This document shows, piece by piece, positions 4,122-46,349 of a stretch of 52,910 bases of DNA. Under the pieces are notes generated by a model. The model worked only from the letters and a program-made list of their open reading frames with translations, searched no databases and was not told the origin of the DNA. Position 1 is the first letter of the stretch. Every line of letters starts with the position of its first letter. The position numbers and the translations under genes were made by a program. Origin of the DNA: Vicinamibacteraceae bacterium (GTDB taxonomy: Bacteria > Acidobacteriota > Vicinamibacteria > Vicinamibacterales > JAFNAJ01); the NCBI GenBank assembly GCA_023384595.1, contig JAHDVQ010000002.1, forward strand, positions 1-52,910. The letters are read 5' to 3'.

Positions 4122-4376
4122 ATGAGCGCGAGGACCCCCCAGCCCGCCCCCGATCAGTGCCCGGTCTGCCGGCACTTTCTCGCCGACCCGGACCAGCTCG
4201 AACGCGAGCTGCCGGGCCTCACGATTCTCTCATCTGCTTGGGGTTCCACGCGGGGACGCGCCGGTCTGTGCGCCCGGTTCGGGACCTGGCAGGACCCGGT
4301 CACCGGGTGCCGCGAGTTCTCGCCGCGCCCGCTCCCGGTGTTCCCCCACGGTGCTGCCCGCGTTACGCAGAGGTGA
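4122..4376 (+). CDS. hypothetical small four-cysteine protein (84 aa)
   Basis: ORF track entry with high GC3 and CPVC...C...C. The ATG lies 14 nt after the -12 GC, so the mRNA may be leaderless. The stop abuts the next gene. Confidence 0.4.
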   Translation: MSARTPQPAPDQCPVCRHFLADPDQLERELPGLTILSSAWGSTRGRAGLCARFGTWQDPVTGCREFSPRPLPVFPHGAARVTQR

Positions 4377-4377
4377 C
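4362..4377. promoter_or_regulatory. GTTAC-N6-GTGAC palindromic motif copy
   Basis: GTTACgcagagGTGAC, immediately upstream of the ATG at 4378 and about 267 bp downstream of the -24 GG at 4095. Confidence 0.4.
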
Positions 4378-6495
4378 ATGGCTACCGCTCTTACGCCCCC
4401 CTGGGCGCTTCCTCCCCCCGAGGCGACGCCGGCGCTACGGCAGCAGGCCGAGGCCATTCTGGAGCGCTGCCGCGGCGACGGCCCGGCCAACTGCGTGGCC
4501 CGCTGCCCGCTGCACGTCGATGCGCGCGGCTACGTCCAGTTGACGAAGGACGGGCGCTTTCAGGAGGCGCTGCAGCTGGTTCGCGAGCAACTGCCCTTTC
4601 CCGGCATCCTCGGCTACGCCTGCGCGCACCCGTGCGAGCTGCACTGCAAGCGCATCGACACCGACTCCCCCGTCCGCATCCGCGACATCAAGCGCTTCCT
4701 CGCCGAGTGGGAGCCCGGCCCGCCCCAGCACCGTGTCGACTGCGAGCCCGACCGCGGGAAACAGGTGGCGGTCGTCGGCGCCGGTCCGGCGGGGCTCCTG
4801 GCGGCCCACGATCTGCGCCGCAAGGGATATCGCGTCACCATCTTCGAGAAGGCGGCCGGCCTCGGCGGGTGCCTGACGAGCCGCATTCCCGCCTGGCGCA
4901 TTCCCCGCGACGTCGTCGATCGCGACCTCTCGGTGATTGCCGCCCTCGGCATCGACGTGCGGACGGGCATCGAGGTCGGCCGTGACATCTCGCTGCGCCA
5001 GCTGCGCGAGGGGTTCCCCGCGGTGCTGCTCCTCACCGGCTACGCTGGTGCGCTCGCCCTCACGCAGGGCGAACCCGAGCTCCAGCACGCACGGCGGGAG
5101 ATCCTCGGCGCCAATCCGGTCACCGGCGAGACCGCCATTCCCGGCGTCTTCGCCGCGGGCGACGCCACGAGCGGCCCCTCCACCATCGTCTACGCGATGG
5201 CGCAGGGTCGCCGGGTGGCCGAGTCGGCGCACCGGTTCCTGAGCGGCCTGGACGTCGGCGCCGATCGCGAGAGCCCGCTGCCGGCGCGCCTGCTCTGGAG
5301 CCTCGACATTCCCGAGGCGGAACGCCGCCGGCGCGAACGCACGCCGGTGATGCTCACCCCCGCCGTGCCGCCGCTCACGGAGGCGGAGGCCCGCGAGGAA
5401 GCCGCGCGGTGTCTCGACTGCCAGTGCGGGCTCTGCGTGAAGGACTGCGAGTTCCTGGCCAAGCACTGTCACTCGCCGCGCGATCTCGCGCGCCGGGTCC
5501 TCGCCGGCGTCGAGCCGCTTGACACGCGCACCGTCGCCTACTCGTGCAACATCTGCGAGCTGTGCGGCACGGTCTGCCCCGAGCACCTCGATACGGGGAA
5601 GATGCTGCTCGAGGCCCGCCGCGAAGCCGTCCGCCAGCAACTCGGTCCGCTCAAGCAGCACAAGCCCATCGTCGGTTACTACAAGGCCGGCGTGTCGAAG
5701 CCCTTCACCCTGGTGATGTCCGAGCCGGGCCGCACGAAGTCGAAGCGGCTGTTCTTCACGGGATGCTCGCTGCCGGCGACCGCGCCGGCGCACACGCTGC
5801 GCGTCTACGACGAACTCCGCCGGCACTACCCCGGCACGGGCGTGCTCATGTGGTGCTGTGGGGCGCCCGCAGAGCTCATCGGCATGGAGGAGGCCTTCGA
5901 GACGACGAAGCGGCAACTGCAGCAGGCGGCGGAGGCCACCGGAGCCGAGGAACTCGTCGCGGCCTGCCCCGACTGTCTGCACACGCTGCGTGGCGCGGAT
6001 CTGGGCCTGACGATCTCGACGGTGTGGGAACGGCTGGCCGGCCGCTGGAAGCCCCCGCAGACGCGCGAGGGCGTGGTCGTCTCGATCCACGACTCGTGCA
6101 AGGGCCGGCACGATCCGGCGCTGCACGCCTCGGTCCGGCGGCTGCTCGACGAGGGCGGCGTGACGGTACAGGACGTCGAGTATGCCGGTCCGCTGGCGCG
6201 CTGCTGCGGGTTCGGCGGCATGATCGCGCCCGTCGATCCGGCGTTGCAGGGCCGGATCACGGACCGCCGCGCCAACGAATCGCCGCTGCCGATGATCACC
6301 TACTGCGCGGGCTGCCGCACGGCGCTCGCGAGCCGCGGCAAGGCGTCGCTCCACATCCTCGACCTCCTGCTCTCCGACGACTGGCAGCAGAAGATGACAC
6401 AGAAGTCGCCCGGCTCGATTCCGCGCTATCTCAATCGCCTGAAGACCAAGTGGGCCTTCAAGCGGCTGCGGCCGCTCTCGGGCAAGGCGGAGTGA
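4378..6495 (+). CDS. fusion of a GltD-like FAD/Fe-S domain (second nucleotide-binding domain missing) to an HdrD/GlpC-like domain with two [4Fe-4S] motifs and two CCG motifs
   Basis: The N-terminus carries CVARCPLH...CAHPCELHCKR and VAVVGAGPAGL. The middle carries CLDCQCGLCVKDC and CNICELCGTVCP. The C-terminus carries the CCG motifs MWCCGAP and ARCCGFGG. I chose the ATG at 4378, which has a gaggtg RBS. Confidence 0.85.
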   Translation: MATALTPPWALPPPEATPALRQQAEAILERCRGDGPANCVARCPLHVDARGYVQLTKDGRFQEALQLVREQLPFPGILGYACAHPCELHCKRIDTDSPVRIRDIKRFLAEWEPGPPQHRVDCEPDRGKQVAVVGAGPAGLLAAHDLRRKGYRVTIFEKAAGLGGCLTSRIPAWRIPRDVVDRDLSVIAALGIDVRTGIEVGRDISLRQLREGFPAVLLLTGYAGALALTQGEPELQHARREILGANPVTGETAIPGVFAAGDATSGPSTIVYAMAQGRRVAESAHRFLSGLDVGADRESPLPARLLWSLDIPEAERRRRERTPVMLTPAVPPLTEAEAREEAARCLDCQCGLCVKDCEFLAKHCHSPRDLARRVLAGVEPLDTRTVAYSCNICELCGTVCPEHLDTGKMLLEARREAVRQQLGPLKQHKPIVGYYKAGVSKPFTLVMSEPGRTKSKRLFFTGCSLPATAPAHTLRVYDELRRHYPGTGVLMWCCGAPAELIGMEEAFETTKRQLQQAAEATGAEELVAACPDCLHTLRGADLGLTISTVWERLAGRWKPPQTREGVVVSIHDSCKGRHDPALHASVRRLLDEGGVTVQDVEYAGPLARCCGFGGMIAPVDPALQGRITDRRANESPLPMITYCAGCRTALASRGKASLHILDLLLSDDWQQKMTQKSPGSIPRYLNRLKTKWAFKRLRPLSGKAE

Positions 6496-6497
6496 TC

Positions 6498-44906: not shown

Positions 44907-46315
44907 CCGTCTGTGGCAAGCGGCTGTTGATTGTCGAGGACGAGCCGCTGCTGCGCGTGAGCATCGCCGATGCCCTGCGCCGCGAGGGCTGGCTGGTCGA
45001 CGTCGCGTCGGATGGCCCCGAGGGTATCGCGCTCTTCGAGCAGCACGGGCACGACCTGGTGGTCAGCGACCTCGTGCTGCCGCACCTCGGCGGCATGGAG
45101 CTGCTGCGCCATGTCAAGCTGACGCAGCCCGACACGACCGTCGTGATCATGACGGCGCACGGGTCGGTCGAGCGCGCGGTCGAGGCCATGCGCGAAGGCG
45201 CCGCCGACTTCGTCACCAAGCCGTTCTCGATGTCGCAGCTGCTGGTCCGGCTCGACAACGTGTGCTCGATGCGCGTGCTGCGCGAGCAGAACGTGCGCCT
45301 GCAGGAACAGCTCGAGGATCGCCACTCGTTCTCGAAGATCATCGGCCGGTCCAAGCGCATGCACGAGGTCTTCGACCTGATTCGGCAGGTGGCCGATTCC
45401 GACGCGTCGGTCCTCGTGCAGGGCGAGAGCGGCACGGGCAAGGAAATGGTCGCCTCGGCGCTGCACTTCAACTCGCGCCGCCGCGCCAAGCCCTACGTAC
45501 GGGTCAGCTGCGCGTCGCTGCCCGAGTCGCTCATCGAATCCGAGCTCTTCGGCTACGAGAAGGGCGCCTTCACCGGCGCCGTGCAGCGGCGGGTCGGCCG
45601 CTTCGAGGCGGCCACCGGCGGCACGCTGCTGCTGGACGAGATCGGCGACCTGCCGCTCAACTTCCAGGTCAAGCTGCTGCGCGTGCTGCAGGAGCGGCAG
45701 ATCGAGCGCCTCGGTTCGAACCGGCCGATCCCCGTCGACGTGCGCGTCATCGCCGCCTCGCTCAGGCCGCTCGAAGAGGAGATCGCCGAGGGTACTTTCC
45801 GCGAGGACCTCTACTTCCGCATCAACACGGTCACCATCCACGTGCCGCCCCTGCGGGAGCGGCGCGAAGACATCCCACTGCTCGCCGGTGCCTTTCTGCG
45901 CGAGTTCACCCAGTCGCGCGGCAAGGTGCTCGAGGGATTCAGCGACGAGGCGCTCGAGATCCTGATGGCGCACAACTGGCCGGGTAACGTGCGGGAGCTG
46001 CGCAACGCCGTCGAGCGGGCCGTGCTCTTCTGCAAGAGCGGGCTCGTCATGCCGGCCGACCTGCCGTCGGGCCTGCGATCCAACGGCGAGCGCGCCGCCC
46101 TCGCCCCCCCGCCGGCTCCCCAGGCGCAACCGATGCCGCTGCAGCAGGCGGTGATGCAGGCCGAGATTGCCGCCATCTTCGCGGCGCTGAGGACCACGCA
46201 CGGCCGGCGAAGCGACGCCGCCGAGATCCTCGGGGTGACGCGGAAGACCCTGTGGGAAAAGATGCGTGACTACGGCATCTCCGTCGATGCGAACGGCGAT
46301 GCTTCGCGCACGTAG
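44903..46315 (+). CDS. NtrC-family sigma54-dependent response regulator (receiver, AAA+, Fis-type HTH)
   Basis: LLIVEDEP...LVVSDLVLP, GESGTGKE, GAFTGA, WPGNVRELRN, and C-terminal AAEILGVTRKTLWEKMRDYG. Confidence 0.95.
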   Translation: MTVCGKRLLIVEDEPLLRVSIADALRREGWLVDVASDGPEGIALFEQHGHDLVVSDLVLPHLGGMELLRHVKLTQPDTTVVIMTAHGSVERAVEAMREGAADFVTKPFSMSQLLVRLDNVCSMRVLREQNVRLQEQLEDRHSFSKIIGRSKRMHEVFDLIRQVADSDASVLVQGESGTGKEMVASALHFNSRRRAKPYVRVSCASLPESLIESELFGYEKGAFTGAVQRRVGRFEAATGGTLLLDEIGDLPLNFQVKLLRVLQERQIERLGSNRPIPVDVRVIAASLRPLEEEIAEGTFREDLYFRINTVTIHVPPLRERREDIPLLAGAFLREFTQSRGKVLEGFSDEALEILMAHNWPGNVRELRNAVERAVLFCKSGLVMPADLPSGLRSNGERAALAPPPAPQAQPMPLQQAVMQAEIAAIFAALRTTHGRRSDAAEILGVTRKTLWEKMRDYGISVDANGDASRT

Positions 46316-46333
46316 CATCGGCGAGTCGCGGAA

Positions 46334-46349
46334 GTTACGGAGGGGTGAC
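46334..46349. promoter_or_regulatory. GTTAC-N6-GTGAC palindromic motif copy (candidate enhancer/UAS)
   Basis: aGTTACggagggGTGACg, centred about 93 bp upstream of the -24 GG at 46435. An AT-rich tract (46391-46420, tgcatataaaggtgttaacaaaagc) lies between the motif and the promoter. Confidence 0.5.

Follow-up and report, generated by a model that had tools for sequence, protein, structure and literature searches.

The 52,910-bp stretch of Vicinamibacteraceae DNA analyzed here, referred to as the window, harbors a dsr island of six co-directional operons, each headed by a sigma-54 promoter. Each of these promoters is accompanied by one copy of the palindrome GTTAC-N6-GTRAC, and the final gene of the dsrTMKJOP operon encodes an NtrC-type response regulator, EBP2, that is a candidate binder of this palindrome (Table 1). 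Gene calling was guided by GC content at third codon positions (GC3), and domains were assigned by Pfam; Pfam returned nothing informative for the unannotated open reading frames (ORFs) of the window, and neither approach revealed aio genes in the window. The nearest relatives of the window DsrL protein, with 76-79% identity, come from Vicinamibacterales and unclassified Acidobacteriota metagenome-assembled genomes (MAGs). An earlier proposal that the palindrome marks one sulfur regulon fits the contents of the six operons, which are of hdrA/nuo-like, rhodanese, dsrK-like/nrfD-cytochrome, yeiH-dsrABDLNC, dsrTMKJOP-hemA-cysG-regulator and porin type.

Palindromes and sigma-54 promoters of the island

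An exact search for GTTAC-N6-GTRAC on both strands of the window retrieves the six copies of Table 1 and no others. In 100 dinucleotide-preserving shuffles of the window, the mean is 0.02 copies, and none of the shuffles reaches six. Allowing one mismatch adds a single match, at 23826 on the minus strand in a coding region. The half-site GTTAC occurs 12 times on the plus strand, and six of these occurrences lie within the palindrome copies. The spacer is 6 bp in every copy. Each copy pairs with one GGC-N7-TTGCW element (at 4095, 13445, 17751, 22715, 32250 and 46435), and all of these elements are intergenic and on the plus strand. Five copies precede the -24 GG of their promoters at distances, measured from the motif end, that deviate from 95 bp by -32, -10, -2, 0 and +20 bp. 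The copies at 4362, 13314 and 22604 overlap the 3' coding sequence of a gene.

The sequence-only reading of the window had listed the same six copies at all six sigma-54 promoters, with far fewer than one copy expected by chance, five of them 71-123 bp upstream of the -24 GG, the sixth about 267 bp downstream of its promoter and abutting the ATG at 4378, and one directly downstream of the NtrC-type gene. These observations are reproduced here: the five distances agree when measured from the motif centre, and the copy behind the NtrC-type gene begins 19 bp after the stop codon. The same orientation of all copies is likewise as described but has little meaning, given that the motif is a palindrome, that relatives mostly carry the perfect GTAAC half and that four asymmetric copies would point the same way by chance about one time in eight.

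Table 1. Features of the window, with positions counted from its first nucleotide.
Feature	Positions	Strand	Sequence	Remarks
Motif copy 6	4362..4377	+	GTTACGCAGAGGTGAC	last codons V-T-Q-R-stop of small ORF 4122-4376
Motif copy	13314..13329	+	GTTACCGGGCCGTGAC	115 bp before -24 GG, rhodanese operon; in non-domain tail of histidine-kinase ORF
Motif copy	17672..17687	+	GTTACTGTCGAGTAAC	perfect palindrome; 63 bp before -24 GG, dsrK-like/nrfD-cytochrome operon; within inverted repeat with 14-bp arms
Motif copy	22604..22619	+	GTTACGCCGCGGTGAC	95 bp before -24 GG, yeiH-dsrAB; includes TGA stop of upstream nrfD-cytochrome gene
Motif copy	32141..32156	+	GTTACCCGCACGTAAC	perfect palindrome; 93 bp before -24 GG, dsrTMKJOP
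Motif copy	46334..46349	+	GTTACGGAGGGGTGAC	19 bp past EBP2 stop (46315); 85 bp before -24 GG, porin operon
Sigma-54 -24/-12 element	4094..4109	+	AGGCACGCGGGTTGCA	also kept in L337-L339
Sigma-54 -24/-12 element	13444..13459	+	GGGCACAGCGGTTGCA	GGC-N7-TTGCW pattern
Sigma-54 -24/-12 element	17750..17765	+	CGGCACACCGCTTGCT	GGC-N7-TTGCW pattern
Sigma-54 -24/-12 element	22714..22729	+	TGGCCCGCGCGTTGCT	GGC-N7-TTGCW pattern; yeiH-dsrAB
Sigma-54 -24/-12 element	32249..32264	+	GGGCACGCTGGTTGCT	GGC-N7-TTGCW pattern; dsrTMKJOP
Sigma-54 -24/-12 element	46434..46449	+	GGGCATATCGCTTGCA	GGC-N7-TTGCW pattern; porin operon
EBP2, NtrC-type response regulator, candidate binder	44903..46315	+	GVTRKTLWEKMRDYGI	REC-AAA+-HTH_8 (Pfam); sequence is the recognition helix
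HK2, sensor kinase, presumed EBP2 partner	43431..44906	+		sCache-HAMP-HisKA-HATPase (Pfam); kept beside EBP2 orthologues
PhnD-family periplasmic binding protein, AioX-like third component	42263..43429	+		Pfam PF12974; start codon uncertain
Small ORF, first gene of hdrA-like operon	4122..4376	+		84 aa, Cys-rich (CxxC...C...C); conserved protein, no Pfam family
Operon 1				small ORF, hdrA/gltD-CCG-like, nuoG/fdh-like, nuoF-like, receiver protein, histidine kinase
Operon 2				rhodanese, DedA, gene without assigned function, citrate synthase
Operon 3				DsrK-like, two genes without assigned function, NrfD-multihaem cytochrome fusion
Operon 4				YeiH-family membrane protein, dsrA, dsrB, dsrD-sized ORF, one unassigned gene, dsrL, dsrN, dsrC
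Operon 5				dsrT (RsbRD_N), dsrMKJOP, FAD-disulfide oxidoreductase, hemA, siroheme synthase (cysG), PhnD-family binding protein, sCache-HAMP kinase, EBP2
Operon 6				phosphate-selective-type porin, one unassigned gene, large DUF7948 protein

Two genes that neighbor palindrome copies have unusual features. The histidine-kinase ORF at 11815-13428 runs 46 codons beyond its HATPase domain, across the copy at 13314, and ends 17 nt short of the next promoter; its true C-terminus is uncertain. The gene at 20792-22618 encodes an NrfD-type membrane subunit fused to a C-terminal multihaem cytochrome c3/c7 domain and belongs to a dsrK-like operon that is separate from dsrMKJOP.

Conservation and spacing in relatives

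For comparison, 79 loci (designated by L numbers) were fetched with DsrL as the query and analyzed together with the window, using promoter-like sequences rather than the motif as the anchor and examining 170 bp upstream. The motif recurs in these loci upstream of yeiH/dsrAB, at the position of the 22604 copy, and upstream of dsrT, at the position of the 32141 copy, mostly as perfect GTTAC-N6-GTAAC. Lineages in which the motif recurs at orthologous dsrAB and dsrTMKJOP promoters comprise Vicinamibacterales-like, Thermoanaerobaculia, Sulfomarinibacteraceae and Holophagae MAGs. The 22604 position is the most widely conserved, and orthologous copies of 32141 include those of L003, L006, L064, L067, L240, L287, L295 and L305. 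The position orthologous to 17672 carries the exact motif in L006, a one-mismatch form in L003 and two-mismatch candidates in L001 and L002. L080, which is syntenic with the 46334 locus, contains GTTACGCGCACGCAAC followed by TGGCAT-N5-TTGCT.

Among the 152 promoter-like sequences of these loci and the window, 60 carry the motif (37 perfect and 23 with one mismatch). The remaining sequences show two to five mismatches, nearly all three to five, and the distribution is thus bimodal. A profile of 72 sites reads Y-GTTAC-N6-GTAAC-R, with no information in the spacer or the further flanks, and single half-site mismatches are never compensated. The combination of near-invariant half-sites, a random spacer and uncompensated mismatches points to sequence-specific recognition by a protein.

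The palindrome also keeps its distance from the promoter. In 51 of 78 distinct sites, the gap between the motif end and the -24 GG measures 92-98 bp, and minor spacing classes of 62-63, 72-77, 82-88, 108-115 and 137-139 bp follow one another at intervals of roughly one helical turn. With the main class set aside, the remaining 27 sites give a Rayleigh R of ~0.42 at a period of 10.7-11 bp, a value that was obtained from phylogenetically related sites by scanning the period and that makes helical phasing only suggestive. The dsr loci contain 48 copies in 1.32 Mb, versus 0 in a negative control of 1.21 Mb surrounding 79 further NtrC-type genes. The persistence of the motif at orthologous promoters of related dsr islands, its near-fixed spacing and its absence around other NtrC-type genes all argue for the proposed role as an enhancer for a sigma-54 activator, and on this comparative evidence we predict that role with high confidence.

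Many dsrAB promoters contain a TCAA-N4-TTG core resembling an integration host factor (IHF) site in an A/T patch between the motif and the promoter, from which we infer a possible role of IHF at dsr promoters. In the window, an A/T-rich patch at ~22662-22680 lies 25-50 bp upstream of the -24 GG, and the equivalent region is conserved in the dsrAB promoters of L216-L332.

A scan of ~185,000 genomes with the pattern GTTAC-N6-GTAAC-N90-99-GGCAC-N5-TTGC returned at least 119 loci. Among the 119 listed matches, 66 lie directly upstream of yeiH/dsrAB or dsrT/dsrM, and seven precede a gene for a cytidylate-kinase-like/CBS protein in Acidobacteriota; the others form a betaproteobacterial group, a Planctomycetota group and a scattered remainder. 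The cytidylate-kinase-like/CBS protein has 475 residues, and its start follows the motif and sigma-54 promoter at a distance of ~265 nt (L241, L248, L251, L263, L269, L330 and L331); its gene is a probable further member of the regulon. In the Planctomycetota L227, L261, L280 and L297, the same motif-N90-99-sigma-54 layout precedes an orthologous gene for a ~300-aa secreted protein with no Pfam family, and no activator gene is found within these 8-kb loci. Three Mycobacterium matches (L215, L268 and L309), which have one orthologous downstream gene in common, are taken to be unrelated to sigma-54 sites. Scattered single matches, such as that of Bifidobacteriaceae L221, are regarded as background, and L242 resembles a terminator-type extended palindrome with a T run.

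The copy downstream of the first promoter

The copy at 4362 differs from the other five in its position, 267 bp downstream of the 4095 promoter and next to the ATG (4378) of the hdrA-like gene. It consists of the codons GTT, ACG, CAG, AGG and TGA and the following C, that is, the last five codons of the small ORF plus one base. A coding explanation is therefore to be weighed, according to which the copy is kept purely for the C-terminus V-T-x-R-stop and the 4095 promoter is driven by another activator, for example the enhancer-binding protein at 2432 that lacks a helix-turn-helix (HTH). The ORF that wholly encloses the copy (plus one base) is conserved, a downstream position is unusual for an enhancer, and the activator gene at 2432-3553 and a 9-bp tandem repeat with four units are located just upstream of the 4095 promoter in the window. 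In the relatives L337-L340 (~70% protein identity), the small protein is conserved with synonymous changes, and all four end in V-T-x-R-stop with GTTACGnnnnGGTGAC.

The codons used at this C-terminus argue against a purely coding explanation. Although GTT accounts for 2.8% of the Val codons in the window, five of five genomes have it at this copy. Moreover, the five genomes share GTT, ACG, an nGG Arg codon, TGA and the following C despite variation at neighboring synonymous positions, and the chance of that codon choice, given the peptide, is ~0.004 per independent lineage. Rare shared codons amid variable synonymous neighbors thus suggest that selection acts on the DNA as well as on the peptide. 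Both the tail and the motif are absent from distant homologues (43-44% identity) of the small protein. Furthermore, no alternative motif-like site with up to two mismatches occurs within 400 bp upstream of the 4095-type promoter in four genomes, and the sole copy at such promoters lies 254-270 bp downstream in the four genomes with a readable promoter. Neither the 2432 activator nor the tandem repeat is found upstream of the operon in the relatives checked. A metagenome scan for relatives of the small ORF yielded seven loci, one of them informative. An internal sigma-54 promoter downstream of the copy was sought and not found. We consider the coding explanation unlikely, although it retains some weight, and assign the copy at 4362 with moderate confidence as a putative conserved downstream enhancer.

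A natural sigma-54 enhancer downstream of the promoter that it serves is known from Bacillus subtilis rocG, where the RocR-dependent element lies beyond the coding region. The rocG element and the copy at 4362 share the downstream location and differ in organism, regulator and sequence, and the candidate enhancer at 4362 forms the 3' end of a small leader ORF.

The surroundings of the 4095 promoter show further peculiarities. The activator at 2432-3553 consists of an AAA+ domain and an unusual C-terminus of 114 aa, with neither a receiver nor a detectable HTH_8. The activator ORF overlaps with that of a stand-alone receiver downstream (3507-4001), neither of the two lies upstream of the operon in the relatives checked, and 2432-4001 may represent a split or rearranged regulator. 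The perfect 9-bp tandem repeat AGGCTTTGT, with 4.2 units at 4045-4082, ends 12 bp before the 4095 promoter; L337 and L339 show no such repeat ahead of their corresponding promoters. The repeat may serve as a binding array for the HTH-less activator/receiver pair or as a bend element. The ATG of the small ORF follows the -12 element by ~13 bp, so that the mRNA would be nearly leaderless, and its stop codon overlaps the start of the next gene (TGACATG).

Candidate binders and the proposed switch

Which protein recognizes the palindrome? EBP2 has at least 120 clusters of orthologues at 70-79% identity in a protein search, a result that overturns the impression from a DNA-level scan that L080 contains the only close orthologue. 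The helix [ST]RKTLWEK[IM][KR] is invariant in all 120 listed clusters, several of which are on dsr contigs. The inspected orthologues of L080, L334, L335 and L336 stand at the end of operons of the type dsrMKJOP-cysG-(binding protein)-kinase-activator, and in L335 and L336 the EBP2 orthologue is followed by a porin gene as in the window. The PhnD-family protein is present in L334 and L080. Of 41 NtrC-type proteins selected solely by their overall similarity to EBP2, the true orthologue of L080 is the only one with the RKxLWEK helix and also the only one whose gene adjoins the motif.

The non-dsr matches of the genome-collection scan connect this helix to AioR. In 11 betaproteobacterial loci among the listed matches, exact GTTAC-N6-GTAAC lies 90-99 bp before the sigma-54 promoter of aioB, which was recognized as the gene for a Rieske protein with a Tat signal (CTHMGC...CPCH). 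These loci belong to several Alcaligenaceae genera, Azohydromonas, a Burkholderiaceae MAG and an unclassified betaproteobacterial MAG, and an aioS/aioR-like kinase or activator gene is detected upstream on the opposite strand in seven of the 11. The AioR consensus site is GTT-N10-AAC, as supported by a DNase I footprint over GTTCGGATTTCCGAAC and an electrophoretic mobility shift assay with the AioR DNA-binding domain, and it is found at aioBA and, in Agrobacterium tumefaciens GW4, at mcp (PMC5335332). Palindromes upstream of aioBA occur solely where aioXSR is present (PMC3834237), and AioX, a periplasmic binding protein, forms the first component of this signalling chain (PMC5908839). All six window copies fit GTT-N10-AAC, except for an A-to-G change in four right halves. 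Judging from the aioB promoters, GTTAC-N6-GTAAC is a sharper AioR consensus for the betaproteobacterial clade than the published one. These promoters (L226, L234, L238, L250, L255, L262, L308, L311, L318, L329 and L333, and also L319 and L325) often contain a second degenerate copy ~42 bp downstream, and L325 (Rhodocyclaceae) has three motif copies around an operon for a binding protein, a kinase and an activator.

The window system resembles AioXSR in several respects. Both have a 16-bp palindrome, which takes the exact GTTAC-N6-GTAAC form in Alcaligenaceae, Azohydromonas and the Burkholderiaceae MAG, at a similar distance to the -24 element (98 bp in the annotated Ensifer locus, 68 bp in Paraburkholderia and 90-99 bp in the 11 scan-selected loci). 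Both use a REC-AAA+-HTH_8 regulator with the recognition helix S/T-R-K/T-x-L-W-E-K-M: SRKNLWEKM in Alcaligenaceae AioR (KISRKNLWEKMK), SRKSLWEKM in Paraburkholderia AioR (GISRKSLWEKMR), SRTTLWEKM in annotated Ensifer AioR (GVSRTTLWEKMT) and TRKTLWEKM in EBP2 (GVTRKTLWEKMR). Both partner the regulator with a HAMP kinase and a PhnD-family periplasmic binding protein, which annotated plasmid aioXSR loci encode in the order binding protein, kinase and AioR. In Ensifer, moreover, the AioR site and the stop codon of aioR overlap, with the site 98 bp before the -24 element of aioB, mirroring the window copy behind the EBP2 stop codon. The two systems differ in phylum (Acidobacteriota versus Pseudomonadota), in targets (dsr and associated sulfur and electron-transfer operons rather than aioBA), in the six promoters served within one island and in the absence of the binding protein from some acidobacterial lineages. 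Sequence identities are 39-41% between EBP2 and AioR, 24-26% between the PhnD-family protein and annotated AioX (E = 5e-11) and 28-33% between HK2 and AioS. The window system thus appears to work like AioXSR and to share its DNA specificity determinants, although its targets differ and orthology is not established; arsenite is an unlikely ligand.

Other known systems match the window less closely. The CbrB site of Pseudomonas, TGTTAC-N12-14-GTAACA, serves an NtrC-family sigma-54 activator with the involvement of IHF (PMC8871633, PMC6296734). Its half-sites, (T)GTTAC and GTAAC(A), match those of the window, but its spacer is 12-14 bp rather than 6 bp, a third subsite is used and the regulon concerns carbon catabolite control, and the window motif is not regarded as a CbrB site. 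In overall architecture, the window follows the classical NtrC/NifA arrangement of upstream activating sequence, IHF site and promoter, with a dyad site ~80-150 bp upstream of -24/-12, apparent dependence on the face of the helix, an intervening IHF-like site and predicted autoregulation of the regulator's own operon. NtrC recognizes TGCACC-N5-GGTGCA and NifA recognizes TGT-N10-ACA. The window family departs from this arrangement in its recognition sequence, in its usually single palindrome per promoter and in the one conserved site that lies ~260 bp downstream of a promoter inside coding sequence.

The palindrome could also be a sigma-54 enhancer for a different protein, with EBP2 controlling something else. 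The foremost candidate is a PAS-AAA+-HTH_8 one-component activator, although any other activator encoded outside the window would serve. Regulators are often encoded beside their sites, and about 30 loci (including L022, L024, L026, L030, L034, L043, L049 and L160-L178) have the end of the PAS activator gene ~100 bp ahead of the motif and dsrAB promoter; the HTH of this activator, ELGIHPSTLFRKIKDLGI, is nearly invariant. The window island and many other motif-bearing loci, however, have no PAS activator beside dsrAB and still keep the motif and its geometry. At least one genome contains both proteins, given that L258 and L336 (with the PAS activator and the EBP2 orthologue, respectively) are on one contig. 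The helix of the PAS activator, IHPSTLFRK, is unlike that of EBP2 and that of AioR, which binds this type of site, and Planctomycetota activators with an IHPSTLFRK-type helix have no motif within 8 kb. The RKxLWEK helix, in contrast, tracks the motif in both lineages in which it is found, namely, at acidobacterial dsr loci and betaproteobacterial aio-type loci. On these grounds, the PAS activator is rejected as a universal binder, and recognition of the palindrome by an activator other than EBP2 is, in our estimate, improbable.

Finally, it is scarcely credible that the palindrome acts as an RNA hairpin that terminates or processes the upstream transcript rather than as a protein-binding enhancer: all copies do sit at the 3' ends of upstream genes, the T-G of four copies can pair in RNA (GUUAC/GUGAC wobble) and the copies at 17672, 32141 and 22604, together with their flanks, fold into extended GC-rich hairpins (-28, -24 and -17 kcal/mol), but the bare 16-mers fold weakly (-2.3 to -4.6 kcal/mol) with no U tract behind any of them, flank complementarity is unconserved (none in 80 of 129 distinct sites, with per-position values equal to those of a shuffled control), half-sites are invariant rather than covarying, their single mismatches are uncompensated, the constant distance is to the downstream promoter and not to the upstream stop codon, and the same site lies between divergent genes at aioBA. 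The weak core fold, the unconserved flank pairing and the uncompensated mismatches together speak against a terminator or hairpin as a general explanation. Long GC-rich inverted repeats are found at 22623-22655 (16-bp arms, 100% complementary, just after the 22604 copy), 17664-17695 (14-bp arms) and 32131-32166 (15-bp arms, 87%). They may be terminators of the upstream operons without a U tract in this genome and are unconserved in relatives.

Several observations weigh against EBP2-dependent enhancer function. As a rule, there is one palindrome per promoter; many activators use at least two sites, and a search for a second half-site or tandem palindrome near each copy gave no consistent offset, except in Holophagae and Sulfomarinibacteraceae, which carry a lineage-specific copy 112-118 bp upstream. 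The sixth copy is located within a coding region, the EBP2 orthologues of L334-L336 have no motif behind them, and some lineages (L335 and L336) lack the PhnD-family protein beside the kinase. In Thermoanaerobaculia, Sulfomarinibacteraceae and Holophagae, it is the PAS activator gene that stands immediately upstream of the dsrAB motif. EBP2 is no closer to AioR than to generic NtrC proteins (44-47%), and the similarity of the EBP2 and AioR helices could be convergent or insufficient to fix specificity. The whole case, moreover, is built on comparative sequence analysis. The sequence-only reading had named the NtrC-type regulator at 44903-46315 as the obvious binder. It does remain the best candidate, on account of its AioXSR-like gene set and AioR-matching helix, but the assignment is inferential and the PAS activator adjoins the motif in other lineages; we hold it with moderate confidence. 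Overall, we propose that GTTAC-N6-GTRAC is the enhancer of a sigma-54 regulon that spans the acidobacterial dsr island and is bound by EBP2, a reading to which we give a probability of about 0.7.

In the mechanism that we envisage, an EBP2 dimer would bind the palindrome via its Fis-type HTH. The sCache/HAMP kinase, probably informed by the PhnD-family binding protein, would phosphorylate EBP2, which would then oligomerize and reach the sigma-54 holoenzyme by DNA looping, probably aided by the IHF-like bend site. ATP hydrolysis would open the six promoters, with the copy at 4362 acting as a downstream enhancer of the 4095 promoter. EBP2 is encoded at the end of the dsrTMKJOP operon, and this operon has the site as well; the circuit would therefore be positively autoregulated. 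That the signal is a sulfur oxyanion is a guess.

As a kind of element, sigma-54 enhancers of NtrC-family response regulators with AioR-type specificity are already known. Novelty appears to lie in the regulon, in the phylum and in the layout, in which one AioR-like regulator at the end of the dsrTMKJOP operon would serve a whole island through one palindrome per promoter. We found no description of sigma-54/activator control of acidobacterial dsr genes in the literature searched, including the main genomic paper on marine dsr Acidobacteriota and surveys of sigma-54 regulons. Peat, soil and marine sediment harbor abundant Acidobacteriota with dsrAB, dsrL and dsrD, and we know of no cultured representative of these bacteria with demonstrated sulfur metabolism. 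Whether their Dsr pathway runs in the reductive or oxidative direction is debated.

The palindrome combined with the -24/-12 element would make the regulon computable from any MAG, including the hdrA/nuo-like complex, the rhodanese, the yeiH-type exporter, the porin and the cytidylate-kinase/CBS protein. It would also provide an example of AioR-type DNA-binding specificity reused in another phylum and another element cycle. The periplasmic binding protein and the kinase offer a direct biochemical route to the inducing signal. The chances seem evenly balanced that an AioXSR-like, oxyanion-sensing three-component system has been co-opted across dsr-carrying Acidobacteriota to govern dissimilatory sulfur metabolism as its master switch, with one conserved palindrome at every operon, including a downstream enhancer. 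In that case, the ligand of the binding protein would reveal which signal is sensed and might thereby show whether the acidobacterial Dsr pathway operates reductively or oxidatively.

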